A stretch of 64,000 nt of DNA from Candidatus Latescibacterota bacterium (GTDB taxonomy: Bacteria; Latescibacterota; UBA2968). The notes under the pieces are model-generated. The model was not told where the DNA came from and did not search any database. It saw only the letters and a list, made by a program, of their open reading frames with translations. How positions within the stretch are numbered: the first letter of the stretch is position 1; the number at the start of each line of letters is the position of its first letter. The stretch lies in contig OZ242195.1 in NCBI GenBank assembly GCA_965205975.1, positions 3,040,001-3,104,000 of the forward strand. The letters run 5' to 3'. A program made the translations under genes and the position numbers. Positions 14,906 to 51,725 of the stretch are shown piece by piece.

Positions 14906-14924
14906 GATATGACCTCCTCCTACA

Positions 14925-28246: not shown

Positions 28247-29575
28247 GGTCGAGTCCAAAAAGTTCTGTAAAATAGTAGCTCCGTGAAATAGGGGTCAGTG
28301 ATTTTGTTTTAGGTACGTCATGTCCAGATAGCGTCTGCCTGTGATCCACTCATCAGACCATTCCATACACAACGCGCCGATGAGACGTTCACAAGCCTTC
28401 TGGTTGGGGAAGATCTGCACCACATCGGCACGTCTTTTGATCTCCCGGTTGAGTCTCTCCAACAGGTTGGTGGTACGAATGCGTCTTTGGTGCTGTTGTG
28501 GAAAGTGGAAGCAGGCCAGAGCATGGATAATATCCTGGTCTATCTTGTCCACGAGCTTGGGCAGTATCTCTTCATAGGTGTCCATCATAGCAGATAGGCG
28601 CGCTTGTGCAGTGGCCTGATCGGGGGCATTGAAAACGTCTTTGAGTGCTTGGGCAACTTCGCGTTGATACTTAGGCGGTGTAATGCCTTTGACATTTCTG
28701 TGAAAATGGGTTTGACAATGCTGCCAAGAAGCCCCTTGAAAGTGTCGTTTGATGGCGTTTTGTAAGCCTTCGTGGTGGTCAGAGATAACCAGTTGCACAC
28801 CCTTTAACCCACGCTTTTTAAGGTCTTTAAACAAATCCCCATACGTGGCTTCTGTCTCGGTGTGCGCCACGTCAATGGCCAAAATGTCGCGGTGCCCACT
28901 CTCTGCGATCCCAGAAACGATTAAGACGGCCTCAGAAGCGACCTGTCCTCGACTACGGATGTGGAGATAGGTCGCATCAATGATCAGATAAGGGTATCCT
29001 TGCTCAAGGGAACGCCCCCGCCAGGCTTTAATATCTGCATCCAGGTCTTGACAAAGCTGTGAGACTTGGGACTTTGAAAAAGAGGTGCCACACAAGGCTT
29101 CTGTGATCTTTGTCACTTTGCGTGTGGAGACCCCTTGCAAATACGCCTCTTGAAGGGCAAGAATCAGTGCTTTTTCACTGCGTTGAAACCGTGAGAATAA
29201 CGCACTGCTAAATCGTCCTTCCCGATCTTGAGGCACGCGCAGTTCGATACGGCCTACGCGCGTCTTGAGGACACGAGGCTTATATCCGTTACGGTAGCCT
29301 GTCCGCTCGCCAGTTCTTTCATAAGGTTCTGCTTGTAAACACGACGTGATCTCGGCTTCCATAAACTGTTGCAGGAAGCGGGTGATGGCCTGATTGAGAA
29401 AATCAGGGTCATTCAAAAGTGCAAATTGCTCTGGCGCGGCAATTTTTATATCTTTGGGGTAAGTCATCGTAGCCTCCAAGGTTAGGGTTTATATTACTAC
29501 TCACCCCTATTTTAAGATTTTTCTCGGAGCTACGGTGACTTTTTTTCCTTTTTACAGAAATTTAAGGACGCTATC
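28247..29575 (-). mobile_element. IS256-family insertion sequence (about 1329 bp)
   Basis: Imperfect terminal IRs GGTCGAGTCCAAAAAGTTCTGTAAAA / GATAGCGTCCTTAAATTTCTGTAAAA; sub-terminal GTAGCTCCG/CGGAGCTAC; no target duplication seen. Confidence 0.9.
28295..29479 (-). CDS. IS256 family transposase
   Basis: YRNGY...TRVG.I.L.VPQDR.G.F, GVSTR, IIDA, ISD, QHCQTHF, IRTTNLLERLNREIKRR. Confidence 0.96.
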   Translation of the reverse strand: MEATMTYPKDIKIAAPEQFALLNDPDFLNQAITRFLQQFMEAEITSCLQAEPYERTGERTGYRNGYKPRVLKTRVGRIELRVPQDREGRFSSALFSRFQRSEKALILALQEAYLQGVSTRKVTKITEALCGTSFSKSQVSQLCQDLDADIKAWRGRSLEQGYPYLIIDATYLHIRSRGQVASEAVLIVSGIAESGHRDILAIDVAHTETEATYGDLFKDLKKRGLKGVQLVISDHHEGLQNAIKRHFQGASWQHCQTHFHRNVKGITPPKYQREVAQALKDVFNAPDQATAQARLSAMMDTYEEILPKLVDKIDQDIIHALACFHFPQQHQRRIRTTNLLERLNREIKRRADVVQIFPNQKACERLIGALCMEWSDEWITGRRYLDMTYLKQNH

Positions 29576-29997
29576 TCCACTTCGTTGATCATGCGATAAA
29601 CCACATCTCCAGATTTGTTGCGATCATAAAAACTCAATGGCAACTGGATCAAGTGGTCGAAAAGATGGCTCCTTATATCCAGCATCATGCGATTGTTTAT
29701 CCAAGCAAATAGATAGTTTGAGCAAAAACCAATGATGATATTGCCGACTGTAACGCCCAGGAGCAGAAGCAAAATAAATATCAACAGCTCATAATCTTCA
29801 TTTGGAAAAACATCATCAATGATAATTTTCATGATATAGGGAAAAGCCAACGAGCTAACAGTCCCCAGGATCATGAGAACAAAAACAATGCTTTGGTGTA
29901 TCCAATAAGGTTTCAGAAATTTCAAGAAATGATAAAAGACATGTCCCTGCTTAGAGAGATTGAAAATGGCTGATATGACTGGTTGTTTGTTCTTCAT
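29576..29997 (-). pseudogene. 5' fragment of an ABC exporter (TM domain) truncated by IS256
   Basis: PYIMKIIIDDV...IRSHLFDHLIQLPLSFYDRNKSGDVVYRM; frame runs into the IS end; no NBD on either side of the IS. Confidence 0.85.
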
Positions 29998-30078
29998 ATT
30001 CACCCGTGATGTAAACAACTCAAAGTGTGCGTATGCATAAGACGCTCTTTGCTCGATAAGCTCAAGTAAACCATTCTC

Positions 30079-30192
30079 TCAAGCTCATATTCCCAAATGC
30101 TTGAGCTTTGAACTGTTGCCTGCCCGCGCCGTCGCACGGCAGGCAGGTCTGCCGCCAATATTCGACTTGCCAGGGTCTGTCGGCGGCTTTTT
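30079..30192 (+). ncRNA. Structured intergenic element, copy 1 (candidate sRNA or attenuator)
   Basis: AAGCTCA..TGAGCTT hairpin, TGCCTGCC..GGCAGGCA hairpin, GCCGCC..GGCGGC+T5; near-identical copy at 34501-34613. Confidence 0.4.
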
Positions 30193-30227
30193 ATATTTAG
30201 AAATCCGGACAAATAGATAACCGCGTA

Positions 30228-32729
30228 TCAATCCTCCCGCAGGGCATCTATTGGGCTTGCAGAGGCGACCTTCAGCGCGTGTACGAAGCCACCTAACAAG
30301 GGAAGTAGAATGCCTGCGAAAATCGCCGCTAAAATCGTCCCAACCCCAAATTGAAAACGGTAAGCAAATATCGAAAGCCACTCATCCATAAAGAAATAAG
30401 ACAGCGGTAGCGCGATAACGGCGGCTACAAACCCGGGCACTGCGTAGTTTAGCACGATCCCACTGGCTATTTTGGATGGCACAGCACCCATGACCCGTCG
30501 AATGGCAATTTCCTTTCGCCTGCGCGCCACTGCCAGAGAGATCATGCCCAGGGCACCCATTGACGCGATGAGAACAGCGCACAAAGCCGCCCCTGAGACG
30601 ATTTTGCTCCAACTGATTTCTCTGGCATAAAATTTTTGTCTTTCATCTTCTATATAAGAAAATCTCAAGGGGTGCTCTGTTTTAAGGTCTTCCCATACGC
30701 TTGTGAGATACGTACCAAAGGCTTCGGCACTGCCCTCTCGAATCCGAATCAATATCTCTGCCGAGAAGGCACGTTGCAAAGTTGCATCCGTGCCTACGGT
30801 GATGATCGTCGGTGAAACCTTATGGCTCAAGTCTCTAACGTGAAAATCCTTAACGACACCCACGATGCGACCACTGACATCACTGCCAAACACGCGCGAT
30901 CTTAACTTTTCTTCTGCTGGACTGATCACCTCTCCGATAGGGTCTGACAACCGCAGATGCTTTTGAAAGACTTCATTTACGATCACATCGCCAGGCATCG
31001 GATTGGGATACAATGATCTCCCCTGCAAGAGTTGCAACCCAACCGTCTCGAGAAAAGGCCCCTTCACTTGATAATAGGTGACCTCATCTATGAGATTACC
31101 ATGGCTATCTTTTATCAGGACTGAGTTTGACCAACCGAACGGCAAGTTCGTCCGTGCAGAGGATGCCACGAGCGGAGACGCAGATAAAGACGCTTGCAGG
31201 CGCCCCATCTCATTTTCGGTCAACCTACCCGTTTCGAGCCTGACCAGGTTCGCAGGTTCAAAGCCCGGCTCTGCCGTAAGAACAAAAAAAGTCTGTTCAA
31301 AGATGATGATCGTGCAAAAGACAAACACCAATGTCACACCCGATTGAACAGCCATCAATACCTTCAAAAAGGGACCAGACCTGACTACCTTTGCTGTTTT
31401 GCTCAAAACGATGAGGGCAGATACAGACGACATAAAGGTCGCCGGATAAATGGCTGTGCCCAGACCAATCAGACAGGCAAGCGAAAGAATAATGGTCGCG
31501 GTCTGAACGGGATCTACTAAAGACGTAAAGGGGGTCCGCAAAACACCTTCAAGAGGACTTGAAGCCAACTCTGCAACCATCAATCCAATAACACAAGCCA
31601 ACAGGCTGTATCCAAAGCATTCGACCAATAGCTGGTATCTGAGTTGCCGCTGGTTCGCACCAAAAATTTGCCTGATGCCCAATTCTTTGGTGCGTGAATT
31701 GAACCGTGCCACGTAGAGCAACACGTAATTCAGACACGCGACAGACAGAATTAGGACACTGATACCGCTGAGAATATATCCATACAAAGGGTTGGTGCCA
31801 GGACGCACACCTTGGCTGCCCCCCCCCGACCCACTATGACTATGATGGTGCAACTCTGTGATGGGTTGAAGTTTGGCCCTTAAGGTCTCCAAATCCCAGA
31901 ACGGGTTAGCGGGGTAATTTTGGATGATCCGTGTGAGCTTTCTCTCCACTTCCTTTATGTTGGCTTCGTCTGCCAGACGTATATAATGTGTGGATGTAAA
32001 ATCCCAGCCCCGTCCACCTTCTTGCTTGTCGAGAAAGGTTGACGACATACTCAAGGGCAACAGAATCTCAAAATCCAGACTTGAATTTAGGGGAGGCGTT
32101 TCCACAATGCCCTCTATTTTTACAGGGACCACTGCTTTTTTTGTCGGGTTAAAAGATAAAGACAATTTCGGAGGTGGTTGTATCCATAACACTTGACCTA
32201 CTAAATTGCCAATATTGTTGGAAAGCGTCTGAGCGAATGCGCGTGTTATTGCGACTTGCCCTGGACGTGAGAGGAATGTACCATGAATAAGCGGGAATGA
32301 AAAAATCTCCACGAAACTCCTATCTACCAACACGACCTTATCTATATCTCTCAGAAAATCTTTGTGAGTACCTACGTGCCAAATTCTCATATCAGGATGG
32401 GAAAAGGCACCAAGTATACGGGTTGTGGCCTCGATCTCAGGAATCTCGGCAGACATCGCCGATGCCAATGAAACTGGAAAACTGGTAGGCTCAGCTCCTG
32501 TGCCCGCCAGAGGACCCATACCTATTTGTCTGAACTTTGCCTTCCCAGTAATGCGGTATATGCGATGATGGTCTTTGTGGAACTTATCAAAGCTCCAATC
32601 ATACAGGACGTAAAGCACGCAAAGATAGGTGCAGGCAATCCCTATCCCCAAACCCAGCAGGTTAATGGCGGCATACGTTTTATATTTGAGAGCATTGCGA
32701 AACCAGGTTCGGAAATAATTGAAAAGCAT
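30228..32729 (-). CDS. MacB/FtsX-type duplicated-domain ABC permease (cassette A)
   Basis: INLLGLGIG, SFDKFH..IYR, RTKELGIR..GA, VGVVKDFH, RRKEIAIRRVMGA, P.DALR.E. Confidence 0.92.
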   Translation of the reverse strand: MLFNYFRTWFRNALKYKTYAAINLLGLGIGIACTYLCVLYVLYDWSFDKFHKDHHRIYRITGKAKFRQIGMGPLAGTGAEPTSFPVSLASAMSAEIPEIEATTRILGAFSHPDMRIWHVGTHKDFLRDIDKVVLVDRSFVEIFSFPLIHGTFLSRPGQVAITRAFAQTLSNNIGNLVGQVLWIQPPPKLSLSFNPTKKAVVPVKIEGIVETPPLNSSLDFEILLPLSMSSTFLDKQEGGRGWDFTSTHYIRLADEANIKEVERKLTRIIQNYPANPFWDLETLRAKLQPITELHHHSHSGSGGGSQGVRPGTNPLYGYILSGISVLILSVACLNYVLLYVARFNSRTKELGIRQIFGANQRQLRYQLLVECFGYSLLACVIGLMVAELASSPLEGVLRTPFTSLVDPVQTATIILSLACLIGLGTAIYPATFMSSVSALIVLSKTAKVVRSGPFLKVLMAVQSGVTLVFVFCTIIIFEQTFFVLTAEPGFEPANLVRLETGRLTENEMGRLQASLSASPLVASSARTNLPFGWSNSVLIKDSHGNLIDEVTYYQVKGPFLETVGLQLLQGRSLYPNPMPGDVIVNEVFQKHLRLSDPIGEVISPAEEKLRSRVFGSDVSGRIVGVVKDFHVRDLSHKVSPTIITVGTDATLQRAFSAEILIRIREGSAEAFGTYLTSVWEDLKTEHPLRFSYIEDERQKFYAREISWSKIVSGAALCAVLIASMGALGMISLAVARRRKEIAIRRVMGAVPSKIASGIVLNYAVPGFVAAVIALPLSYFFMDEWLSIFAYRFQFGVGTILAAIFAGILLPLLGGFVHALKVASASPIDALRED

Positions 32730-32779
32730 TGGTTACCCTTGGCAATCAAGAGACGCTTGATCTCAGCTAACTTTCGCCA

Positions 32780-33874
32780 TTAGCTGGTAGGGGTTTCAGG
32801 AGGGCCAATAAGACGATATACCCTGATCCTACCATTCGTATTCTCGTTATCTGTCGGAGATAAATACCTATATACAAACATCCCATAACAATTAAAAACA
32901 TCGTTTACACCCAGTTCGTTTTTTATTTTTTCTGCATAAGGCTCTCCACTCGGATCTGATAGAAGTATCAGAGCTGTGCTATTTGATGAATCATTGAATA
33001 GATATCTGAGCAACATATCTCCCGAAGATAAGAGATGCATGCCGTTCAAGCGGCTGAAATTGTGTATATCACTTGCCAATTCTTTCTGAGTTTTGCTATC
33101 GTCCATTTTAAAGCGAATAAACTTAGGCTGACTCATGGTAATGGGCTTAAGAAAACGTTGTGTTATCAAATCAATTCGCATAACCTTCTCTTCCCAGGGC
33201 AGGACAAAGTGTATGATTTTTCGCGCTTCGTCATAAGCAAGCCCTTGAAAACGCTGCAACATAAAAAATAGGTCCATGTATTGTGCATCACAGACTTTGA
33301 ACTTTACGATATCTTTACCTGTTTCAAGTGAGGTGACGCAAAGCATACCGTTTTTGTCTTTGTCAACGTAAGTATGAATAAAGTTTTGATCTTCAGAAAC
33401 CATCATGCGATTAATGAAACGTCTCTCCGGCAGTTTCAATTGTCCTAAAAATTCACCTTTGATCGAGAATCGAAGAATCTGCCCGGCTCCCGCATCGTAG
33501 ATCAGCATTTGGTCGGTATTCGGTATCATTGTTGGCTCTCGCGGTATCTTGTACTGGCCTTCCATACCCCCTCGGTTGCCGATAGACCACTTGTAGTTAC
33601 CCTCTCTGTCAAAAACTTCGACACTCCTTCTCAAGCCATCTAAAACAATGATATAGTCCTTCACAACTGTGATAGAACTTACTACCCCAAGTCCTGGCCT
33701 CATCTCCGGGAATTCGAGTGTAATCTCGTCAACCAATGAAAGTTGCGTTCCTTGCGCTTGCTTAAGGACGACCTCTTCTTGCTGGTTTTCAACAGCACTT
33801 TTTTCGCAACTTCCAAAGATAAGAAAGAAGAGTGCCATCAATCTCACAGGGGCTAATAACTTTTTTCGATTCAT
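32780..33874 (-). CDS. 6-bladed beta-propeller lipoprotein (cassette A)
   Basis: Lipobox FGS-C; VFDREGNYKWSIG.RG..EGQY..P repeat typical of NHL/6-blade propellers. Confidence 0.8.
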   Translation of the reverse strand: MNRKKLLAPVRLMALFFLIFGSCEKSAVENQQEEVVLKQAQGTQLSLVDEITLEFPEMRPGLGVVSSITVVKDYIIVLDGLRRSVEVFDREGNYKWSIGNRGGMEGQYKIPREPTMIPNTDQMLIYDAGAGQILRFSIKGEFLGQLKLPERRFINRMMVSEDQNFIHTYVDKDKNGMLCVTSLETGKDIVKFKVCDAQYMDLFFMLQRFQGLAYDEARKIIHFVLPWEEKVMRIDLITQRFLKPITMSQPKFIRFKMDDSKTQKELASDIHNFSRLNGMHLLSSGDMLLRYLFNDSSNSTALILLSDPSGEPYAEKIKNELGVNDVFNCYGMFVYRYLSPTDNENTNGRIRVYRLIGPPETPTS

Positions 33875-33940
33875 GAGGATAATCCTTTCTTATCGTTGGC
33901 TCGGTGCCCCCAGTCTGTTTACCGAGAACACCAAGCCAAT

Positions 33941-33971
33941 CTTGAGCCTATCAAGCTCGGTTGCACACTTT
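33941..33971 (+). repeat. Downstream arm of bipartite inverted repeat around peptide A
   Basis: CTTGAGCCTATCAAG-N7-GCACACTTT. Confidence 0.85.
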
Positions 33972-34211
33972 TTTCTATGATTAAGATCAGCAATTAAGAG
34001 TACACCTAAAGCTCACTCAGAAGAAAGAAGCCAGTCTAAAGTTCATAGAAAAGAAAAATGATCGAATTCACTTGAGATAGAACTTTTGCCCAGAGATGTG
34101 TGGGTATCTGTCAATCCAGGCGACTTCGATTCTTTTTATGAATTAGCAATACCTTAGACTGAATGATGGGTAGCTAAAGATGCTCTCAAGCATCAGAGAT
34201 TCCAGCGCTAA

Positions 34212-34421
34212 CTAGCCGCACGTAATAGTCTCCTCGTCATTATAGAAAATGTGAAGGCAGCTAGTATCGCACGTCACACTTCCCTCACATTGAATACAAT
34301 CAAAGTAATGTGCTCCGTAAGAGTCTGTAAACCAATAATCAAGGCGGCTTCCACTGCCCTCATATCCATAGATACGCGGAGAAGACAGCCGAGACTGCAC
34401 AGGCTTTGTCAAAGTTTTCAT
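34212..34421 (-). CDS. Putative RiPP precursor peptide A (69 aa, 5 Cys)
   Basis: AAGGAGGTGAT RBS; leader MKTLTKPV..IYGYE shared with 38481-38678; core has Cx2Cx5Cx3Cx12C. Confidence 0.88.
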   Translation of the reverse strand: MKTLTKPVQSRLSSPRIYGYEGSGSRLDYWFTDSYGAHYFDCIQCEGSVTCDTSCLHIFYNDEETITCG

Positions 34422-34453
34422 AGTATCACCTCCTTTCCTTATTGAGTCAAGTT

Positions 34454-34486
34454 AAAGTGTGCTTGCCCTTACTTGATAGGCTCAAG
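34454..34486 (-). repeat. Upstream arm of bipartite inverted repeat around peptide A
   Basis: + strand AAAGTGTGC-N9-CTTGATAGGCTCAAG. Confidence 0.85.
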
Positions 34487-34500
34487 TAAAACCATTCTCT

Positions 34501-34613
34501 CAGGCTCACATTCCCAAATGCTTGAGCTTTGAACTGTTGCCTGCCCGCGCTGTCGCACGGCAGGCAGGTCTGCCGCCAATATTCGACTTGCCAGGGTCTG
34601 TCGGCGGCTTTTT
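34501..34613 (+). ncRNA. Structured intergenic element, copy 2
   Basis: Near-identical to 30079-30192. Confidence 0.4.
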
Positions 34614-34648
34614 ATATTTAAAAATTCGGACAAATAGATAACCGCGTA

Positions 34649-37129
34649 TCAATCCTCCCGCAGGGCATCTATTGGGCTTGCAGAGGCGACCTTCAGCGCG
34701 TGTACGAAGCCACCTAACAAGGGAAGTAGAATGCCTGCGAAAATCGCCGCTAAAATCGTCCCAACCCCGAATTGAAAGCGGTAGGCAAACATCGAGAGCC
34801 AATCATCCATAAAGAAGTAGGAGAGAGGGAGTGCGATGATGGCAGCTATAAATCCGGGTAGTGCGTAGTTCAGCACAATGCCACTGGCTATTTTGGATGG
34901 CACAGCACCCATGACCCTTCGGATGGCGATTTCCTTTCGCCTGCGCGCCACTGCCAGAGAGATCATGCCCAGAGCACCCATTGACGCGATGAGAACCGTG
35001 CACAGGGCTGCGCCAGAGACGATTTTGCTCCAACTAATTTCTCTGGCATAAAATTTTTGTCTGTCATCTTCTACGAAGGAGAACCGCAACAACCCATTGA
35101 TTTTCTGGTCTTTCCAAAGCTGTTCGAGATACGGGACAAATTCATCTGCACGGCCTTCTTCGATACGAACCAATATCTCTCCTAAGCTGGCTCGTTGCAA
35201 AGTCGCATCCGTACCAACGGTGATGATGGTCGGCGCAACCGTGTGGCTCAAGTCTCTAACGTGAAAATCTTTTACCACACCCACAATGCGTCCACTGACA
35301 TCACTCCCAAACACTCGTGATCTTAACTTTTTTTCTGCTGGGCTGATCACCTCTCCAAGAGGCTCTGAAGACGTTAAGTGCTTTAGGAAGGCTTCATTCA
35401 CGATTACATCGCCAGGGATAGGGTTTGGGTATAGCGACTTTCCGTGTAAGAGTTGCAACCCAACGGTATCGAGAAAAGGCCCATCCACTTGATAATAGGT
35501 GACCTCATCAATGAGTTTGCCACTGCTGTCTTTCATCAAAACTGTGTTTGACCATCCGAAGGGCAGATTCGTCCGCACATAGAAGGTCACGAGTGGAGAG
35601 GCTGATAAAGATGCCTGCAGGCGGTTGATCTCATTTTTTTTCAAGCCATCAGTATTGAGTTTGACGAGGTTCGTCGGGTCAAAACCTGGATACGTGGTGA
35701 GGATAAAAAAAGTCTGTTCAAAGATAATAATGGTGCAAAACACGAACACCAACGTCACGCCCGATTGGACTGCCATCAATACCTTTAAGAAAGGACCAGA
35801 CCTGACAGCTTTTGAGGTCTTGCTCAAAACGCTGATGGCAGATATAGATGACATAAAGGTCACCGGATAAAGGGCTGTTCCTATCCCTATCAGACAAGCT
35901 AATATCAAGAGAATAATTGCGGTCTGAAGGGGTGCCACCGAGGACGTGAGTGGGGTCTGTAAAATACCTTCAAGGGGGGGTGATGCTAACTCTGCAACTG
36001 CCAGGCCTATGATGCAAGCCAAAATGCTGTATCCAAAGCCTTCGACCAATAGCTGGTGCGTGAGGTCCTGGCGGTTCGCGCCGAAGACTTGCCTAATGCC
36101 CAATTCTTTGGTGCGTGAATTGAACCGCGCCACGTAGAGCAACACGTAATTCAGACAAGCGACGGACAAAATTAGGATACTCATACCACCGAGAATATAT
36201 CCATATAAGGGACTGGTGATTCGACTCACACCATACACCCGCTGTCGTATCGATCCAGGATTATGGTGCATATCTGTGATGGGTTGAAGCCTGCTTTTAA
36301 AGGTATCTAAATTCCATAATGAGTTAAGAGAAGCCTGCTTTTGGATCAGTCTCGTAAGTTTTCCATCTAATGCCCCGATATCTGATCCATCTGTCAAACG
36401 GATGTAATGTGAGGATTGAAAGCGCCAGTCCCAATCTCCTTCTTCCCTGTCGAGAAAGGTTGCAGACATACTCAATGGCAAAAGTATCTCAAAATCCAGG
36501 CTCGAATTGCGGGGAGGCGTTTCCACAATACCCCCTATTTCAATAGGGGCTACTATAGGTTCCAGGTCTTTAAAGAGACTATGAGAAAATCGCAGCCATA
36601 AGACTTTGCCAATCAAACTGTCAGTATCATTGGCCAGTGTTCGAGCGAATCTGCGCGTGATCACGACTTGCTCTGGTCGAGCCAAGAAAGTTCCGCGGAT
36701 AAGCGGAAAAGAGAACATCTCCTCAAAACTTCTATCGACGAACAGTACCTTTTTGATAGGGCGCAGAAAATTTCTGTGGGTACCCACATCCCAATTCGCA
36801 AGGTCACTCGTTACGCGGGTCGTAAGTTCAATCTCTGGAAACTCGGCAGACATCATGGGTGATAGTGCAACAGGAAAAGACATTGTCTCAGTCCCTGTCC
36901 CTGCTTTAGGAGAGCTTCCTATTGTTTCGCTGTACTTTACCTTTCCTGCAACGCGATAGATGCGCTGATGGTTTTCGTGAAATCTATCAAAGCTCCAATC
37001 GTACAGGATGTATAACACACAGAGATAGCAACACGCGATCCCGATTCCCAAACCCAGCAGATTAATCGTTGCATAAGCTCTATACTTGAGGATATTGCGA
37101 AACCATGTTCGGAAATAATTGAAAAGCAT
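34649..37129 (-). CDS. MacB/FtsX-type duplicated-domain ABC permease (cassette B)
   Basis: Full-length paralog of 30228-32729 with an identical C-terminus. Confidence 0.92.
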   Translation of the reverse strand: MLFNYFRTWFRNILKYRAYATINLLGLGIGIACCYLCVLYILYDWSFDRFHENHQRIYRVAGKVKYSETIGSSPKAGTGTETMSFPVALSPMMSAEFPEIELTTRVTSDLANWDVGTHRNFLRPIKKVLFVDRSFEEMFSFPLIRGTFLARPEQVVITRRFARTLANDTDSLIGKVLWLRFSHSLFKDLEPIVAPIEIGGIVETPPRNSSLDFEILLPLSMSATFLDREEGDWDWRFQSSHYIRLTDGSDIGALDGKLTRLIQKQASLNSLWNLDTFKSRLQPITDMHHNPGSIRQRVYGVSRITSPLYGYILGGMSILILSVACLNYVLLYVARFNSRTKELGIRQVFGANRQDLTHQLLVEGFGYSILACIIGLAVAELASPPLEGILQTPLTSSVAPLQTAIILLILACLIGIGTALYPVTFMSSISAISVLSKTSKAVRSGPFLKVLMAVQSGVTLVFVFCTIIIFEQTFFILTTYPGFDPTNLVKLNTDGLKKNEINRLQASLSASPLVTFYVRTNLPFGWSNTVLMKDSSGKLIDEVTYYQVDGPFLDTVGLQLLHGKSLYPNPIPGDVIVNEAFLKHLTSSEPLGEVISPAEKKLRSRVFGSDVSGRIVGVVKDFHVRDLSHTVAPTIITVGTDATLQRASLGEILVRIEEGRADEFVPYLEQLWKDQKINGLLRFSFVEDDRQKFYAREISWSKIVSGAALCTVLIASMGALGMISLAVARRRKEIAIRRVMGAVPSKIASGIVLNYALPGFIAAIIALPLSYFFMDDWLSMFAYRFQFGVGTILAAIFAGILLPLLGGFVHALKVASASPIDALRED

Positions 37130-37179
37130 TGGTTCTCCTCAGCAATTAGAGGATGCTTGAGCACACCTCACTTTTACCA

Positions 37180-38307
37180 CTATTCGGCAGGGTTTGCAGG
37201 AGCATCAATAAGACGATAAACACGGATATTACCATTCGTATCCTCGTTATCAGAAGGAGGCGAGTACTTATAAACAAGCCTGCCTTGACAAGTAAAAATA
37301 TTTCGTTCCAATTCATTGTTTACTTCTTGTGCAGAAGGTTGCACGCTCAGGTCTGATAGAAGTATAAGCGCGGTACTATTTGAGGGATCCCTAAAATCGT
37401 ACCTGAACAAAATATCTCCCGAAGGGAGGAGATGCATTCCGCTTAATCTACTAAACTTACCAAAGTTAGGTGGAGGGGAGAATAATCCTGTTTTATCATC
37501 ATCTAATTTGAGACTGACGAATTTGGGATGATTTGTGGTTATAGGGGGGAGAAAATCTCGTGTCGCCAGATCAATTCTCATCACTTTATCTTCCCAAGAT
37601 AGGGCAAAATATATGATTTCTCGCGCCTCATCATAAGCAAAGCCGTGAGAACGCTGGAACATAAAAAAAGCCCTCTCGTATTGAGCCTCGCAGACTTTGA
37701 ACTTTGCAAGGTCTTCACCCGTATCAAGGGAGGTAACGTAAAGCATACCGTTTCCTTTTCGGTCACCATAAGGATAAATGAGCTTGCGATCTTCAGAAAC
37801 CACCAGGGGATTAATAAGGCGTCGTTGGGGCAGTTTTAATCGTCCTAAAAATTCACCTTGAACGGAGAAGCGAAGCGTCTGCCCAGTCCCGCCATCGTAG
37901 ATCAGCATTTGTTCGGTATTCGGTATCATCGTTGGCTTGCTCGGTGATTTGTACTGGCCTTCTCCCTCTCCTCGACTGCCAATAGGCCACTTATAGTTGC
38001 CTGCTCTGTCAAAAACTTCGACACAACTTCTTAGAACATCAAAAATAATGATGTAGTCATCCATCACCGCAATTGAGCTTACCATCCCAAGTGCGGGACC
38101 TGTCTCTGGACGTTCGAGTGTAATGCCATCAATTAAAGATAGATGAGCCCCTTGTGTTTGCACTTTGAGGACGATGACATCTTGTCGCGATTGAAAACTC
38201 GCCATCCCATCTTGCTGGTTTTCAACCGCACTTTTTCCGCAACTCCCGCAGATCAGACACAGAAGTGTCAGCCCCCCTACTTGAACCCATAGCTTGTTGC
38301 GAGTCAT
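37180..38307 (-). CDS. 6-bladed beta-propeller lipoprotein (cassette B)
   Basis: Lipobox CGS-C; paralog of 32780-33874 (KSAVENQQ, PTMIPNT.QMLIYD, NG.IRVYRLI). Confidence 0.8.
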   Translation of the reverse strand: MTRNKLWVQVGGLTLLCLICGSCGKSAVENQQDGMASFQSRQDVIVLKVQTQGAHLSLIDGITLERPETGPALGMVSSIAVMDDYIIIFDVLRSCVEVFDRAGNYKWPIGSRGEGEGQYKSPSKPTMIPNTEQMLIYDGGTGQTLRFSVQGEFLGRLKLPQRRLINPLVVSEDRKLIYPYGDRKGNGMLYVTSLDTGEDLAKFKVCEAQYERAFFMFQRSHGFAYDEAREIIYFALSWEDKVMRIDLATRDFLPPITTNHPKFVSLKLDDDKTGLFSPPPNFGKFSRLSGMHLLPSGDILFRYDFRDPSNSTALILLSDLSVQPSAQEVNNELERNIFTCQGRLVYKYSPPSDNEDTNGNIRVYRLIDAPANPAE

Positions 38308-38374
38308 GACTTATCACCCTTTCCCTATTGTAAAATCAGTGCTCCTGTAATATTTTGAGAGCACTGAGTCAATT

Positions 38375-38404
38375 TTGAGCCTATCAAGCTTGATTGCACA
38401 CTTT
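38375..38404 (+). repeat. Downstream arm of bipartite inverted repeat around peptide B
   Basis: TTGAGCCTATCAAG-N7-GCACACTTT. Confidence 0.85.
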
Positions 38405-38480
38405 TATTTTTTACTGAACATACTTCATTATGGCAATAAAAAAGATAAAATAGAAGACAGATCTCTTTAAAAGCCAGCCC

Positions 38481-38678
38481 TTATCCCCAAGACCGAGCAC
38501 CAGGAGGAAAGCACTGCAAAACGGAACGCCAAACGAACTGGCACTCATACAAATCAACAGGGTTTCCATCTACAACGCCATCTCCAACGTCTACCCAGGC
38601 AAGTCCAACTCCAAACTCGTATCCATATATAGGCGACGCCATATTCTGAATCTTCACTGGTTTGGTCAATGTTTTCAT
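38481..38678 (-). CDS. Putative RiPP precursor peptide B (65 aa, 2 Cys)
   Basis: AAGGAGGTGAT RBS; leader MKTLTKPV..IYGYE; core unrelated to peptide A. Confidence 0.88.
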   Translation of the reverse strand: MKTLTKPVKIQNMASPIYGYEFGVGLAWVDVGDGVVDGNPVDLYECQFVWRSVLQCFPPGARSWG

Positions 38679-38710
38679 AATATCACCTCCTTTCCTTATT
38701 GCGTCAAATC

Positions 38711-38743
38711 AAAGTGTGCTTGTCCTTACTTGATAGGCTCAAG
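38711..38743 (-). repeat. Upstream arm of bipartite inverted repeat around peptide B
   Basis: + strand AAAGTGTGC-N9-CTTGATAGGCTCAAG. Confidence 0.85.
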
Positions 38744-38766
38744 TAAAACCGTTCTGTTCTTAAATA

Positions 38767-39489
38767 TCAATAAATAAATGTAGATAAAGGATCTATATCA
38801 AAATCTTTGGCAATAATTTGAGAATAGGGCACTCCTTTAAGATGATCGTTCAGAAGTGGTTTTTGCAATCGCAAATGTCTTTGAATCACACCAAAAAAGA
38901 GGACTGTATTTTGAGGGCGATCTTTTGAGGATAGATGACAATGCGTTATGATATTCTTTTCATTGACAACAAAGATAGCCGGGGTGCGATGAGTAAGCAT
39001 TTCATTTTGGAATAGCATGTTCTCCGTATCCGGAAGCAACTCGTAATGGAGGTTAAAACTCCTTTTGTATCTTTTTAACACGCCCGCAGGAGCATTGGCA
39101 AAAGCATAAATTGGAAAGCGTTTTGAGGGATCCTGATTTTGGTACACATGCTCCAGTAACTTTATCTGGGTGATTAGACATGGCTGACAGTCTTGTGGGC
39201 TGAAGACCAGAACCAGTCCTTTTCCTGTTTCGGAAAAGTCTGTTGAAATCCAGTCGCCATTTATGTTCTTCAATTCCAACTTCGGAAATTCCTGTCCTTG
39301 ATAATTGGATGCGTAGGTAGAGGCATTTATATGCTCTTTGTAATCGGCATTCTCTATTCGGAGTTCTCTGATTGTTTTCCAATGACCAGAGTTCGTATTT
39401 CTCAATTTCCATATCCCGAATAACGCAACCAGAAGAAGAACAGATAACAGGATATTCAAAATCAGCGACATTTTCCGAATTTCTTGCAT
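38767..39489 (-). CDS. Membrane-anchored redoxin (TlpA/AhpC-TSA-like)
   Basis: N-terminal TM helix, FP.LEL..ING, LVLVFSPQDCQPC, cis-Pro motif RTP. Confidence 0.8.
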   Translation of the reverse strand: MQEIRKMSLILNILLSVLLLVALFGIWKLRNTNSGHWKTIRELRIENADYKEHINASTYASNYQGQEFPKLELKNINGDWISTDFSETGKGLVLVFSPQDCQPCLITQIKLLEHVYQNQDPSKRFPIYAFANAPAGVLKRYKRSFNLHYELLPDTENMLFQNEMLTHRTPAIFVVNEKNIITHCHLSSKDRPQNTVLFFGVIQRHLRLQKPLLNDHLKGVPYSQIIAKDFDIDPLSTFIY

Positions 39490-39632
39490 TTACTTTCTCC
39501 CCATCACCAAAAGCAACCACAGATAAACCGATGAACACGGATGGTTGCAGGTTTAGGACCTGCACTGGAGGCCATAATTCAGTGCTACGCTTGTCTCAAA
39601 TGCGGGCAACCACGAGGGTTGCCCCTACGATT

Positions 39633-41889: not shown

Positions 41890-41918
41890 TTGACAATCTA
41901 CCCCTCAAAAGATACCTT
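41890..41918 (+). promoter_or_regulatory. Candidate sigma70 promoter antisense to the operon
   Basis: TTGACA-N17-TACCTT immediately 5' of structured element copy 3. Confidence 0.5.
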
Positions 41919-41924
41919 ACTATC

Positions 41925-42008
41925 AAGCTCACATTCCCAAATGCTTGAGCTTTGAACTGCAGTCTGCCGCCGACACTCGACTTGCCAGGGTCTGTCGGCG
42001 GCTTTTTT
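41925..42008 (+). ncRNA. Structured element copy 3: candidate ~85-nt sRNA ending in an intrinsic terminator
   Basis: AAGCTCA..TGAGCTT hairpin, then GCCGCCGACA..TGTCGGCGGC+T6; lacks the middle hairpin of copies 1 and 2. Confidence 0.45.
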
Positions 42009-44809: not shown

Positions 44810-46240
44810 TTACGAGGTTATTTCCAGATTATATCGTCGCTGCAACAAAGACGCATCCTCTTCTGCAATCTCCATACACATCTCCATCGCCAGTTCATAG
44901 CGATAACGTGTCTGTTCACAAGCAACAGGGTTGGGGTACATCGGGTCCCCCGTCGTCGTCCGAGCATCCCAAAGACATCCACCACCACACAGATTGCGCG
45001 CCCAGCATGTCTTGCACTCTGGGCGATTATTCACATTGAACTGCGCGTCAAAATGCTGCTGCTTTTCGCGATCAATACCCACAAACACATCACCCATCTT
45101 AAACTCGGGTGCATCGGCCAGACTCGAGCAAAAATAAATTGATCCATCTGCTGCAATAGCCAGATACTGCTTACCACCCAGGCATCCATGACAGGATTTT
45201 GCGCGCGTCAGCAATTTCTGAATCCGCGGATCAAACTCTTCACTCTCTTCACCATTCAGAATAGCTTTGAGCGCACGGCGGCTCCGCCTGTAAATTTGTT
45301 GTTTCAAAACAGGTATGTGTTCTTCCCGAATGGCATAAGGCGCATCGGGGGAGACAACCGCCGGACCGATGAGCGCGTTATCAGTACCCAATGAGCGCAA
45401 ATCATCGGCAATCTCATCCTCATCCATATCATACGCTGTCATAATAGCTTGCAGGTACACGCGCTCAGGTGCCTCAGCAGTCAATTTCTGTACATTCTTT
45501 GCCACGACATCATAAGTACCAGAACCATTGTGAAACTTGCGAATACGGTCCTGTGTCTTACGTCCGCCATCCAGGCTGACTTTAATTTGAAACTTTTCAT
45601 CGATCAAGAACTGCTTCATCTCGTCGGTCAACAGCGTGCCATTGGTCACAATGCCAAAACCAACCTGCACTCCCAGGCACGCGCCCAGAGATTTGGCAAA
45701 TGGGACAAGCTCTCTCATCAATGGAAAATTCAGAAGCGGCTCCCCGCCAAAAAAATCAATCTGGCACCGCCCCAAAGCCTGAGCTTCGGTGATGATCCAG
45801 CGTATCGATTGCTCGGCAACATCGGGTTGCATCAGCATCGCCTTACCGCCATAATCCCCGCCATGTGCAAAGCAATAAGCACACTGAATATTGCATGTAT
45901 GCGAAACGTGCAGCGACACCTGCAAACGATCTGTCTGTGATACCCCACAAGCTGCCACCCCTTCTGTCGTCGGCACCTGGGACACCAGAAGCAATGCACC
46001 ATCCGCAATCAACCCCACCTGTGCCAATTCCTCAATAGCCTCGGCAATTTCCTCTGCCTCGTATTGATCGGCCAACGTCTGGACAACCTGTGAAGCAGAT
46101 AAGCCCTCGCAACATTCTAAAATTGATTTGAAAAGGGGATCCAGTTCAAAAAACAGACCTGTCTCAATCTGATAGACAATCGGCTGATTTTGCTCTTCAG
46201 TTTGAAAAAGATGTATGTCGCATTTCTGAATGCATAGCAT
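44810..46240 (-). CDS. Radical SAM/SPASM peptide maturase with N-terminal RRE (QhpD/CteB-like)
   Basis: CNIQCAYC, FFGGEPLLN, TNG, SLDG; SPASM C..G....C and CKTCWARNLCGGGC..C; N-terminal 3-strand/3-helix pattern; ATG 46240 behind GAGGAG. Confidence 0.93.
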   Translation of the reverse strand: MLCIQKCDIHLFQTEEQNQPIVYQIETGLFFELDPLFKSILECCEGLSASQVVQTLADQYEAEEIAEAIEELAQVGLIADGALLLVSQVPTTEGVAACGVSQTDRLQVSLHVSHTCNIQCAYCFAHGGDYGGKAMLMQPDVAEQSIRWIITEAQALGRCQIDFFGGEPLLNFPLMRELVPFAKSLGACLGVQVGFGIVTNGTLLTDEMKQFLIDEKFQIKVSLDGGRKTQDRIRKFHNGSGTYDVVAKNVQKLTAEAPERVYLQAIMTAYDMDEDEIADDLRSLGTDNALIGPAVVSPDAPYAIREEHIPVLKQQIYRRSRRALKAILNGEESEEFDPRIQKLLTRAKSCHGCLGGKQYLAIAADGSIYFCSSLADAPEFKMGDVFVGIDREKQQHFDAQFNVNNRPECKTCWARNLCGGGCLWDARTTTGDPMYPNPVACEQTRYRYELAMEMCMEIAEEDASLLQRRYNLEITS

Positions 46241-46268
46241 GCCAGGCACTCCTCAGAACAGATACAAT

Positions 46269-46445
46269 TTACTCAGGCTGATCAAAATTGTCCCAATCGT
46301 CATCATCAGGGAACGGCATGGGGGGAACAGTAATAGGATAAGGGGTACAGCCAACTTCAAAACTATCCGTCGTCTGATATGTGCTAATACCACCCTCTTT
46401 ATCCATTGTTCCATTGATCAAGATCAACTTGCGTCGAGTCGTCAT
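46269..46445 (-). CDS. Putative RiPP precursor peptide C (58 aa; missing from ORF track)
   Basis: MTTRRKLILINGTMDKEGGISTYQTTDSFEVGCTPYPITVPPMPFPDDDDWDNFDQPE*; AAGGAGG RBS; first gene after the sigma54 promoter, 28 bp before the rSAM. Confidence 0.85.
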   Translation of the reverse strand: MTTRRKLILINGTMDKEGGISTYQTTDSFEVGCTPYPITVPPMPFPDDDDWDNFDQPE

Positions 46446-46504
46446 ATTATCCTCCTTAAATACAAAAATCTAAATGTCGTCATTGTCTTCGCTCCGTTTA
46501 TATC

Positions 46505-46519
46505 GCAAGATCCGTGCCT
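46505..46519 (-). promoter_or_regulatory. Sigma54 (-24/-12) promoter
   Basis: AGGCACGGATCTTGC = GG-N10-GC, matching TGGCACG-N4-TTGC. Confidence 0.82.
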
Positions 46520-50841: not shown

Positions 50842-51598
50842 AATTTGTTGCGTCTCTTCGGGAACAGCGATATTGAACTTCGCCTATTGGTGGAGGTGAC
50901 TCTCGAATATGCTTCATAATAACAGATATGGGATTTTGTCCAGAAAAGGGCGATGCGTCCGTGAGGACTTCGTATAAAATCACACCCAATGAGTACAAAT
51001 CTGACCGATGATCCACCCACAACCCCTTACCCTGCTCTGGCGACATATATTCTGCCGTACCAATCGTTGCACCCGTCTGAGTAATGGAAGCACTGTGCAA
51101 ATGTCTGAATTTCGCCAATCCCAGGTCCAGAATCGTGGTTTCAATCCCCTCTTTTGTCTCCAAAACCATAATATTGGATGGCTTGAGATCGCGATGCACT
51201 GCACCCTGAGCGTGGACATAAGCCAATCCATCGGCAATTTGTTGTATCAAGTCAAAAAAGTGAGACGTCCGGAATTGCTCTAACAGTACACGATCGGCAA
51301 TAATTTTTTCCAATGTCTTTCCGGGCAAATATTCCATTGTAAAATAGGGACGGTCTTTGGCAAAGCCCCAGGTGTATGTGCGAACCAGACGCGGGTGCTG
51401 GAATCGGTTCAACACCTGAAACTCTCTGTGAAAACGACGGCGCACAGCCTGCTCATCCATCATTTCATTCAAAATTTTGAGCGCGCAATCCCGATCTTGC
51501 TCCAGGTCCAAAACCCGATACACTTCACCCATGCCCCCGGCTCCCAGGTGCGCCTGGATCTGGTATCTTTTGTCGAGAATTGTGCCAATTTCGAACAT
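50810..51598 (-). pseudogene. Hanks-type Ser/Thr kinase domain (5' part of the same gene; +1 frameshift near 50875)
   Basis: LGAGGMGEVY, ALK, HRDLKPSN, DLG, GTAEYMSPE; subdomain XI (KLLAKERVDRYQSA) lies in the next frame. Confidence 0.85.
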
Positions 51599-51725
51599 AC
51601 GCGTTATTCTTTGCAAGTTTTGATTGATATGTGAGATTAATAATGCGTAAGATTCAGAATTTTTTCAACCTTTTTGGCGACACGGGGCGCAGTTTGTTCT
51701 GTTGTATTTTTCAGACCCATCAATT

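Follow-up and report, generated by a model that had tools for sequence, protein, structure and literature searches.

A bipartite inverted repeat around precursor-peptide genes may form a long-range RNA stem in a sponge-associated Latescibacterota bacterium

Two short precursor-peptide genes of a Latescibacterota bacterium are each enclosed by inverted copies of the same bipartite sequence, which raises the question of what a pair of distant, complementary arms does for the gene between them. The window analyzed here is the whole stretch of 64,000 nucleotides; the locus is a low-GC, sigma-54-controlled radical-SAM/SPASM natural-product peptide island in the MAG of an uncultured sponge Latescibacterota. 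An earlier note had described the repeat around each peptide gene, the enclosed spans of 546 and 369 bp and the CTTGA-N5-TCAAG palindrome within its 15-mer, and we found all of these as described. The note placed the start of one arm at 38375, where there is indeed a copy, although the arm begins at 38374 with a mismatched base that had been skipped. The features on which the argument draws are as follows.

46759-50841: sigma-54 activator gene, carrying an HTH_8 domain
46504..46519, minus strand: sigma-54 promoter AGGCACGGATCTTGCG at the head of the island, preceding a 58-aa ORF and the rSAM/SPASM gene
46269-46445: 58-aa ORF, downstream of the sigma-54 promoter
44810-46249: rSAM/SPASM gene, downstream of the sigma-54 promoter
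38711..38743, minus strand: A2, 5' arm of cassette 2, beginning 24 nt past the redoxin stop codon
38481..38678, minus strand: precursor-peptide gene 2, 65 aa, leader as in gene 1, core unrelated
38374..38404, minus strand: B2, 3' arm of cassette 2, outermost base mismatched (C·A) with A2
38334..38370, minus strand: local hairpin 3' of B2, before the lipoprotein RBS
37180..38307, minus strand: DUF5128 six-bladed beta-propeller lipoprotein gene downstream of cassette 2; paralog at 32780-33874
34649..37129, minus strand: FtsX/MacB-type permease gene; paralog at 30228-32729
34487..34625, minus strand: locus-specific module of ~140 nt upstream of A1; more copies at 30068-30204 and, shorter, at 41914-42007
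34454..34486, minus strand: A1, 5' arm of cassette 1, CTTGAGCCTATCAAG-N9-GCACACTTT, ~32 nt upstream of the peptide ATG
34212..34421, minus strand: precursor-peptide gene 1, 69 aa, leader MKTLTKPV..SPRIYGYE, Cys/Asp/Glu-rich core, strong SD GGAGGTGAT
33941..33971, minus strand: B1, 3' arm of cassette 1, mRNA reading AAAGUGUGC-N7-CUUGAUAGGCUCAAG
33896..33939, minus strand: local hairpin 3' of B1, ~12-14 bp, 5' of the lipoprotein RBS, conserved
30022..30066, minus strand: A0, fifth copy of the motif in the window, an unpaired 5'-type arm, CTTGAGCTTATCGAG-N21-GCACACTTT, upstream of a truncated ABC-transporter gene

The blocks thus follow each other in the order A2, peptide 2, B2, lipoprotein/permease, A1, peptide 1, B1, lipoprotein/permease, A0, ABC. 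The ~140-nt module contains a GC-rich hairpin followed by a T-run when read on the plus strand. The hairpin 3' of B1 shows differences between cassettes that appear by eye to be compensatory (CGGTGTTC/GAACACCG versus CAGTGCTC/GAGCACTG). Precursor peptide 1 matched no Pfam or NCBIfam family. The DNA enclosed by the two arm pairs had been called unrelated, and this holds for the peptide cores but not for the first ~104 nt (arm, 5'UTR and first codons), which are 89% identical between the two window cassettes, nor for the leader MKTLTKPV...IYGYE, which both peptides have in common.

Exact copies of the 15-mer CTTGAGCCTATCAAG lie at 33941-33955 (plus strand), 34472-34486 (minus strand) and 38729-38743 (minus strand), and a copy with one mismatch, TTTGAGCCTATCAAG, lies at 38374-38388 (plus strand). 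Each is followed by the 9-mer GCACACTTT, the second box, after seven nucleotides in the 3' arms and nine in the 5' arms of the window cassettes, and B1 is fully complementary to A1 over 15 + 9 bp. The arm motif is more than chance: at up to three mismatches the 15-mer matched five times in the window, with 1.13 matches expected, while the 9-mer had seven exact matches against 0.41 expected, five of them adjoining a 15-mer, and none of 100 shuffles reached either count. In the 5.56-Mb genome the only 15-mer copies with zero or one mismatch are the four cassette arms; one of the six matches with two mismatches is also in the peptide locus, to which the bipartite motif CTTGAGCCTATCAAG-N-GCACACTTT is confined.

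Arms paired around peptide genes in homologous loci, which the earlier note had proposed to look for, were present in all ten intact homologous cassettes, from nine genomes of one Latescibacterota genus. The precursor-peptide leader is kept in the ten cassettes, and each cassette has the orientation of its flanking genes. The arms are nearly invariant, whereas the spacers, 3'UTRs and peptide cores between them cannot be aligned across the same genomes; the cores are wholly different between cassettes, and the variable part starts within the ORF, after the leader. The two boxes stand 9 or 20-24 nt apart in the 5' arms and 6-9 nt apart in the 3' arms, a variation that an internal loop would tolerate but a rigid protein site would not. 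Homology between cassettes and between species runs on beyond both arms, so that the arms are not the cassette boundaries. Where the peptide gene is absent, upstream of lipoprotein genes in G006 and G002, the orphan 3' arms have decayed to 5 mismatches in 15 positions each, and peptide-less lipoprotein operons have a canonical sigma-54 promoter in place of the arms.

The cassette system is confined to this one genus. A phylum-wide DNA search matched 10 of 168 genomes; in two genomes outside the genus, G122 and G138, the matches were SD-like stretches of 28-31 nt beside unrelated genes and were rejected as cassettes. A metagenome scan by redoxin alignment gave no relative among 377 candidate stretches, and the 17 loci obtained with the bipartite DNA pattern were all unrelated single chance matches lacking a partner arm and a cassette. 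The Rfam search of 27000-52000, with E values up to 1, returned nothing relevant, its sole match being Leu_leader (E 0.79) elsewhere.

Compensatory changes in homologs, also suggested as a check, were found on both arms. Across the ten cassettes, standard pairs filled 93.0% of 230 arm cells, and sliding the partner by 1-3 columns lowered this to 26-44%. The 230 cells comprised 203 Watson-Crick pairs, 11 G·U, 7 A·C and 9 other mismatches. Five of the A·C cells belong to the outermost pair, which is C·A in five of the ten cassettes, and G014 forms a poor second helix in the common register, with one C·A and two other mismatches. Two to three pairs were changed on both sides. Pair 22/604 is C-G in five cassettes and U-A in five, while pair 24/602 is U-A in eight, C-G in one and U·G in one, which amounts to the full U-A / U·G / C-G path. 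In each of the two G008 cassettes the 5' and the 3' arm share an identical 1-nt insertion, giving a perfect 16-bp helix in G008a and 16 bp with one G·U in G008b, and in G008a the second box has been lost from both sides together.

The differences found on one side only are biased towards wobble pairs. Read on the sense strand, one-sided changes inside the helices gave 11 G·U versus 2 A·C, whereas in unpaired, well-aligned flanking columns the G·U-type transitions (C>T, A>G) were the minority: they made up 28 cells (18 columns), and T>C and G>A made up 57 cells (27 columns). One-sided Fisher tests gave p = 0.0006 (cells) and 0.025 (columns) with the outermost pair excluded, and 0.026 and 0.053, respectively, with it included, figures that overstate the evidence because the cassettes are related. 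In this sample of ten related cassettes from one genus, the shuffle control was not extreme: the observed percentage paired was reached by 23 of 500 shuffles, the covariation score by 27 and the count of pairs changed on both sides by 117, and for further pair types the observed value was below the shuffle mean.

Folding predictions agree with pairing between the arms. The long-range stem appears in both the MFE and the centroid folds of both window cassettes, the fold of cassette 1 has z = -3.61 with none of 100 shuffles folding as well, and the cognate 5' and 3' ends co-fold at -39 to -50 kcal/mol in all eight cassettes tested. Duplex energies across species singled out the cognate arms clearly for G008 only, the others having almost one motif. 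In the small hairpin considered within the long (20-24 nt) 5' spacer, RNAalifold gave four weak pairs at -0.9 kcal/mol, and we do not claim it. The stop codon of the peptide gene falls in the 3' arm, or 15 nt short of it, in G005c and G014, where terminating ribosomes would open the stem.

The arms are complementary and conserved, they co-vary, their one-sided differences show a sense-strand wobble bias, and the stem is thermodynamically plausible. Of the three readings that the earlier note had offered, an mRNA stem of RNase III type is best supported by the presence of the arms in ten of ten cassettes, the compensatory changes, the G·U bias, the variable spacers and the folds. We propose, with a probability of roughly 0.55 judged from the sequence, that a long-range stem between 5'UTR and 3'UTR excises or stabilizes the peptide mRNA, probably by way of RNase III. 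Present on one sense-strand RNA with the peptide gene, the two arms would pair, so that a helix of 15 bp and one of ~9 bp, separated by an asymmetric internal loop, would enclose the peptide message of ~300-480 nt as a loop. The duplex would be two-fold symmetric because both strands read CUUGA-N5-UCAAG, a symmetry fitting for RNase III or another homodimeric nuclease specific for double strands, and the genome encodes an RNase III domain protein. As in RNase III-type stems, the tracts flanking the RNA to be released can form a duplex of at least ~20 bp, and their pairing is upheld by compensatory and wobble changes, albeit in a small sample of related cassettes. Changes on both sides are also expected from gene conversion between the arms or from co-evolution with a single binding protein.

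The most likely role of such a clamp would be to release a short peptide mRNA from a long transcript running from redoxin through peptide, lipoprotein and permease to the ABC transporter; alternatively or in addition, the clamp could shield both ends of the peptide mRNA. In either case, the precursor peptide would be made in large excess over the export machinery, and the lipoprotein-permease message would have its newly made 5' end capped by the conserved hairpin that directly follows the clamp. Both arms probably lie on one primary transcript, since only 24 nt separate the redoxin stop codon from the 5' arm of cassette 2 and any promoter would have to lie upstream of that arm; on this transcript the stem would form in vivo and be cut by RNase III or another nuclease.

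Several promoter readings of the arms were considered. A sigma-54 promoter inside the arms was rejected as they do not have the GG-N10-GC spacing, and a scan for the sigma-54 pattern gave 29 matches in the window against 36.8 expected, of which only 46504-46519 was convincing. A sigma-70 or Bacteroidetes-type promoter composed of palindrome and box is ruled out by the variable spacing. Between second box and ATG there is a sigma-70-like match, TTGACT-17-GATACT. Transcription from it, were it a real promoter, would leave out the 5' arm. Its second hexamer stops at the ATG, however, and we therefore take the match for SD/ATG context.

The earlier note had also listed paired operators, to which one protein would bind at both ends of the peptide gene and loop or block the DNA, with the 3' site doubling as a control site of the lipoprotein-permease genes. 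This is unlikely, although the CTTGA-N5-TCAAG palindrome is of the kind that dimeric regulators recognize, the motif is locus-specific, several 5' arms have a related palindrome, TTGA-C-TCAA, after the second box, and A0, the partnerless copy before the ABC gene, is kept in three species. Changes on both sides would also be expected if two sites tracked one protein. The architecture of the sites is, however, not fixed, the distance from palindrome to box being 6-9, 9 or 20-24 nt, and conservation is higher in the palindrome's centre (GAGCCYA) than in its half-sites, in which changes are not mirrored within the arm: CCAAG in G006, CTTGG in G005c, TCGAG in L079 and A0, and TTGGA in G012. DNA binding does not predict the G·U strand bias of the one-sided differences, and the decay of the orphan 3' arms before lipoprotein genes, together with the canonical sigma-54 promoter of the peptide-less operons, speaks against operators. 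The only regulator found in the island is the sigma-54 activator, whose presumed promoter region does not contain the motif. The operator option is weakened by these observations.

A variant of the RNA stem, quite unlikely as judged from the arrangement, is that the arms are modular punctuation of a long sigma-54-driven operon in which any 5'-type arm can pair with any 3'-type arm. The two types would alternate at every block boundary, a 3' arm would close around either the upstream peptide gene or the downstream transporter block, and the choice would set which segment is excised or stabilized and hence how much precursor peptide is made relative to the export machinery. This reading would account for A0, which is conserved without a partner and whose two changes, C8>T and A13>G, would still allow pairing with a 3' arm as G·U. 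In three species A0 keeps the box (9 of 9) and the palindrome while the spacer has diverged, and no inverted partner was found downstream at up to three mismatches in the window, G002 or G006. This counts against the clamp as proposed above, since such an arm may also work by itself or have its partner in a 3' arm 4-5 kb upstream.

It is improbable that the arms act separately in the RNA, each as its own small hairpin (5-bp stem, 5-nt loop) that slows exonucleases or marks a cut at the 5' or the 3' end. Each arm is self-complementary, A0 occurs partnerless, and the local stem is kept by wobble in three variants (G5·U11 in G005c, U3·G13 in L079 and A0). Yet a local stem of 5 bp stands against 15 + 9 bp at long range, and MFE and centroid folds choose the latter. 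The local stem is broken by A·C or G·A in both G006 arms, in the G002 3' arm and in G012, while the pairing between arms is kept, and separate hairpins would leave the central five bases and the second box without a role although these are best conserved and co-vary between the arms.

Recombination, the remaining option of the earlier note, found no support and is very improbable; the repeats would be targets for inversion, as in an on/off switch of the peptide, or homology anchors for cassette exchange. Promoter or gene switches flanked by short inverted repeats are known as invertons, and the cassettes resemble them in having repeats of similar length (~30 bp) around a gene-bearing segment of a few hundred bp. 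The arms are alike within each genome, as gene conversion would maintain, and the peptide cores differ completely. Moreover, public contigs of related strains covering 29400-39600 show deletions and duplications of whole cassettes joined near the 5' arms (34440/34449 to 38755/38757). These differences in cassette number nevertheless fall between direct repeats, as in ordinary unequal crossing-over: the joints listed are skips and go-backs between duplicated units only, and none of the 15 listed of 19, from four contig runs, changes strand, which is a weak argument as contigs drop rare forms. In contrast to invertons, all ten cassettes are oriented like their neighbors, and a Pfam scan of 24 island ORFs (28-58 kb) found no tyrosine or serine recombinase, the only mobile gene being the IS256-family (Mutator-type) transposase that cuts the ABC-transporter gene downstream of A0. 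The variable part begins inside the ORF rather than at the 5' arm, and the arm differences follow RNA wobble rules in a strand-biased manner not expected for DNA sites. A MITE with terminal inverted repeats was rejected as well, the motif being present in only one locus of the 5.56-Mb genome, with homology continuing past both arms.

Finally, it is hardly credible that the arms are a functionless relic, an old inverted duplication of the region upstream of the peptide gene kept alike by chance or occasional gene conversion, as could be supposed from their extension into partly similar flanks (GCACACTTTG.TTT on both sides) and the restriction of the system to one genus, given that they are nearly invariant around DNA that cannot be aligned, that arms without a peptide gene do decay and show what neutral drift looks like here, and that the wobble bias points to selection on pairing.

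The proposed clamp has relatives among known systems. In rRNA processing stems, complementary tracts hundreds to thousands of nucleotides apart form a helix of about two turns with internal irregularities. Such RNase III stems flank 16S and 23S rRNA in bacterial rRNA operons (PMC6582327). The likeness lies in distant complementary tracts that bracket an RNA released from a polycistronic precursor; the bracketed rRNA is stable, however, whereas the cassettes would release a short protein-coding message by an inferred cleavage, from a bipartite helix with a variable internal loop.

For the icaR mRNA of Staphylococcus aureus, base pairing between 5'UTR and 3'UTR with RNase III cleavage has been described (PMC3868564). 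There too, a bacterial mRNA 3'UTR pairs with its own 5'UTR, in a duplex tied to RNase III and message control. The peptide cassettes differ in that their arms lie upstream of the SD, which is outside the helices in the MFE and centroid folds, whereas the icaR 3'UTR reportedly covers the Shine-Dalgarno region and represses translation. Complementarity between 3'UTR and SD is not conserved in the cassettes because the length of the 3'UTR ranges from 0 to ~240 nt.

The RNase III sites of phage T7 early mRNA (R1-R5) and lambda sib are local hairpins that punctuate a polycistronic transcript and whose paired ends, left behind, influence how stable the message is. The cleavage proposed for the cassettes would likewise punctuate a polycistronic transcript, but the T7 and lambda hairpins are local and intergenic whereas the cassette arms are two halves on opposite sides of a gene. 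In lanthipeptide and other peptide clusters, a hairpin or weak terminator after the precursor gene raises the ratio of precursor to enzyme. The presumed purpose would be the same, namely more precursor message than machinery message from one operon, but those devices are simple 3' stem-loops and the clamp would be built from both the 5' and the 3' flank. A full-text literature search on that point found no clamp from both flanks of a peptide precursor gene.

In peptide natural-product clusters, precursor is required in far larger amounts than enzymes or transporters. If the proposed stem forms, the two-flank clamp would be a different and portable solution to this need. It would also be a rare instance among bacteria of an entire coding message enclosed by conserved 5'UTR-3'UTR pairing. 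When such clusters of uncultured sponge symbionts are expressed in a laboratory host, both arms would then have to be kept or replaced deliberately, and the arm motif would provide a sequence signature for finding more precursor genes of the same family.

Exact copies of the 15-nt CTTGA-N5-TCAAG palindrome were found where the earlier note had placed them, at 33941 (plus strand), 34472 and 38729 (both minus strand), and a copy with one mismatch lies at 38374 (plus strand). Every copy is followed by GCACACTTT, the spacer being 7 nt in copies that lie 3' of a peptide gene and 9 nt in those that lie 5' of one. A fifth copy, which has diverged further and has a spacer of 21 nt, is located at 30022–30066, upstream of a truncated ABC-transporter gene. 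The 15-mer gave 5 matches (1.13 expected) and the 9-mer 7 (0.41 expected), numbers that no shuffle attained; in a scan of the whole 5.56-Mb genome the 15-mer with 0–1 mismatch occurred at this locus only. The description of the enclosed DNA as otherwise unrelated has to be narrowed: it does not hold for the 5' arm, 5'UTR and first codons (104 nt, 89% identical between the two cassettes), nor for the peptides, which have in common a leader ending in IYGYE.

The cassettes belong to a low-GC island (28–51 kb of the window; 41–49% GC versus 52–56% outside) of which every gene is carried by the minus strand. Sponge and marine metagenomes are among the runs that contain small parts of the stretch. 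Its features, with the genes in order of transcription, are:

50810–51616, minus strand: Ser/Thr-kinase ORF, first in order
46759–50841, minus strand: sigma-54 activator ORF, 1360 aa (AAA_16, TPR, GAF, Sigma54_activat, HTH_8)
46519–46504, minus strand: sigma-54 promoter AGGCACGGATCTTGCG, judged good, 5' of the 58-aa ORF
within 46269–46519, minus strand: 58-aa ORF, strong RBS, immediately 5' of the radical-SAM/SPASM gene
after the 58-aa ORF, minus strand: radical-SAM/SPASM maturase with a PqqD-like domain
after the maturase, minus strand: DUF354, UDP-glucose-dehydrogenase-like and acyl-carrier-like (ACP) genes
thereafter, minus strand: subtilase fused to a DUF1611/TIGR04066 domain, then membrane redoxin
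after the redoxin, minus strand: two tandem units of peptide gene, DUF5128 beta-propeller lipoprotein and FtsX/MacB permease
28295–30018, minus strand: ABC-transporter gene with IS256-family (Mutator-type) transposase insert, last in order
33896–33939 and 38334–38370, minus strand: local hairpins of 12–14 bp, between each 3' arm and the lipoprotein RBS
30068–30204, 34487–34625 and 41914–42007: module of ~140 nt, preceding the ABC gene, peptide gene 1 and the ACP gene

The kinase and activator ORFs, which overlap by 32 nt at the activator start in different frames, look like a single gene split by a frameshift. The 58-aa ORF, which no arms flank, adds a second type of small peptide to the island, unrelated to the first. 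The ABC-transporter gene, intact in G002, G005, G006, G008 and G014 (genomes of relatives), is broken here after 162 codons, leaving 162 of about 596. The ~140-nt module is absent from the rest of the genome; the A-run that precedes its GC-rich hairpin on the sense strand equals a T-run after it on the plus strand.

Close homologs of the lipoprotein gene were detected in nine other genomes of the same genus, the search having matched 13 of 61 relatives at E ≤ 0.001, three of them weakly and in another family; redoxin homologs occur in 7 of the 31 genomes of the family. The order ACP–subtilase–redoxin–peptide–lipoprotein/permease–ABC is kept in the homologous loci compared. A search with the 5' arm and leader recovered cassettes in eight genomes of the genus, with a second one in G008; two matches outside the genus were spurious. 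One further cassette (L079) came from a scan of genome contigs, and scans of metagenomes added none. All ten intact cassettes, from nine genomes, have arms on both sides, the 3' one inverted, and share the orientation of their neighbours. An eleventh, in G001 (L038, 8700–9230), is decayed: its 5'-arm palindrome, RBS and start codon are deleted and a TAA stop interrupts the lipoprotein gene, yet the 3' arm is intact.

Pairing between the arms was counted on an alignment of the ten cassettes, using a named structure of 24 pairs (230 cells). Standard pairs occupy 93.0% of the cells, and 26–44% once the partner is slid by 1–3 columns. The compensatory changes in homologs that the earlier note had asked for are present: at pair 22/604, five cassettes have C-G and five have U-A. 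At pair 24/602 eight have U-A, with C-G seen in G006 and U·G in G002, and both G008 cassettes have an additional A in the 5' arm with a matching additional U in the 3' arm; one of them (G008a) lacks the second box in both arms. Shuffle control (a) was only moderately exceeded, the observed percentage paired being attained in 23 of 500 shuffles and the observed covariation score in 27 of 500. It was exceeded neither in the number of pairs changed on both sides (attained in 117 of 500) nor in further pair types (attained in 495 of 500). Both-sided changes would also be expected from gene conversion, or from two DNA sites tracking one protein, as paired operators would do.

It is the kind of one-sided change that, in this alignment, discriminates in favor of arm pairing. 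On the sense strand, 203 of the 230 cells read as Watson–Crick pairs and 11 as G·U; the rest are 7 A·C cells, five of them in the outermost pair, and 9 mismatches of other kinds. G·U occurs at about 8 pair positions versus 2–3 for A·C. In well-aligned unpaired columns the transitions that give G·U (C>T, A>G) are the rarer ones (28 cells in 18 columns versus 57 cells in 27 columns). One-sided Fisher tests gave p = 0.0006 by cells and 0.025 by columns with the outermost pair left out, and 0.026 and 0.053 with it included, figures that overstate independence because the cassettes are related. Since a constraint at the DNA level has no reason to favor G·T, paired operators do not predict this excess of G·U over A·C. 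The wobble bias also identifies the strand that pairs: it is the sense RNA and not one transcribed antisense.

The anatomy of the arms, too, is more easily reconciled with an RNA helix than with a protein site. The palindrome-to-box distance varies (9 or 20–24 nt in 5' arms, 6–9 nt in 3' arms), the palindrome is more conserved at its centre than in its half-sites, and half-site changes such as CCAAG (G006), CTTGG (G005c) and TCGAG (L079) are not mirrored within the same arm. Paired operators are therefore unlikely, although they come first among the alternatives. The 15-bp and 9-bp helices appear in both the MFE and the centroid folds of the two window cassettes (–175.0 kcal/mol with z = –3.61 for cassette 1; –110.3 kcal/mol with z = –1.89 for cassette 2), and co-folding of cognate ends gave –39 to –50 kcal/mol in each of the eight cassettes tested. 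Co-folding predicts a different short second helix for G008a, where the box is absent, and a shifted one, AUUUCAG/CUGAAAU, for G014; with so few sequences these alternative helices are no more than suggestive. A nearly invariant TTGAC(T) stands 17 nt 5' of a GATAYT abutting the ATG (34422–34450 and 38679–38707, minus strand); the combination scores as sigma-70-like, but the start codon bounds the second hexamer.

That the arms act separately, each as a small hairpin of its own, is less probable again. The distinct, conserved hairpin after the 3' arm shows compensatory differences among cassettes and species, read by eye, and is not a classical terminator because most copies have no U-tract. 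In G006 and G002, where the gene order is peptide–permease–lipoprotein, an orphan 3'-arm-like sequence lies upstream of a lipoprotein gene that has no peptide gene. These orphans are decayed (5 of 15 palindrome positions mismatched in each), and the 3' arm is therefore not the lipoprotein gene's own control site; of the adjacent hairpins, that of G006 is intact and that of G002 is split by an insertion. In the latter genome (L042, ~11200–12150 and ~14700–15200) a transposase-like ORF was seen in the loop of a hairpin upstream of the lipoprotein gene, as well as about 430 nt of extra DNA within the hairpin after the 3' arm. Lipoprotein–permease operons that never had a peptide gene (G005, G015, G007) carry instead a textbook sigma-54 promoter, TGGCAYAGAAATTGCT, at the following positions:

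L033, ~12940–13300
L034, ~4220–4560
L039, ~9200–9440
L044, ~10400–10700

A tandem TTTTCGGACAC / AAATCGGACAC box pair upstream of this promoter is likely to constitute the activator's binding sites.

Sites for inversion or exchange are improbable: all cassettes have the same orientation, a recombinase gene was looked for among the 24 island ORFs scanned and not found, the 15 contig joints listed include no change-of-strand joint, and the variable region begins within the peptide ORF. A relic without function ranks lowest.

Several observations do not fit arm pairing well. Half of the cassettes have a mismatch at the outermost pair, the second helix of G014 is poor in the common register, and in G005c and G014 translation would open the stem, since the stop codon falls within the 3' arm or shortly before it. 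The fifth arm is found upstream of the ABC gene in three of seven loci (the window, G002 and G006), in none of which it has a downstream partner; its palindrome is kept with 2–4 changes and its box 9/9, while the spacer diverges. Since its changes (two, in the window and G002) are G·U-compatible with any 3' arm, it may pair 4–5 kb upstream as an alternative clamp, or it may have a function of its own.

We put the probability that the arms are a functional RNA pairing at roughly 0.55. Only 24 nt separate the redoxin stop codon from the start of cassette 2 and the interval between arm and SD is too short to accommodate a promoter, so the 5' arm should be transcribed, whether initiated at a promoter in the last part of the redoxin gene or reached by long-operon read-through. 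Pairing of the arms would then close the peptide message into a loop. The 15-bp helix is two-fold symmetric, reading CUUGA-N5-UCAAG on both strands, a symmetry that would suit a homodimeric dsRNA nuclease, and the genome encodes an RNase III gene; specific cleavage of the clamp by this enzyme is a tentative proposal, rated less probable than the pairing itself. Cutting would free a peptide-sized mRNA with paired ends, and the downstream lipoprotein–permease RNA would begin at the conserved 12–14-bp hairpin directly 3' of the 3' arm. Without cutting, the clamp would shield both message ends all the same, and in either case the precursor would exceed the transporter.

The closest analogues are the rRNA-flanking RNase III stems (PMC6582327) and the icaR 5'UTR–3'UTR duplex (PMC3868564). 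Unlike in icaR, the SD of the peptide cassettes is uncovered. Searches of open-access full text turned up no account of a precursor-peptide gene clamped by its two flanks, and nothing on the present cluster in the open-access Latescibacteria, sponge and RiPP literature. The paired-arm feature is real and conserved and, judging from the sequence comparisons, most likely an RNA-level device, which would be a variation on known RNA-processing stems. Across the genomes searched it is limited to one genus of uncultured bacteria, and the proposed clamp is directly testable in a heterologous host.
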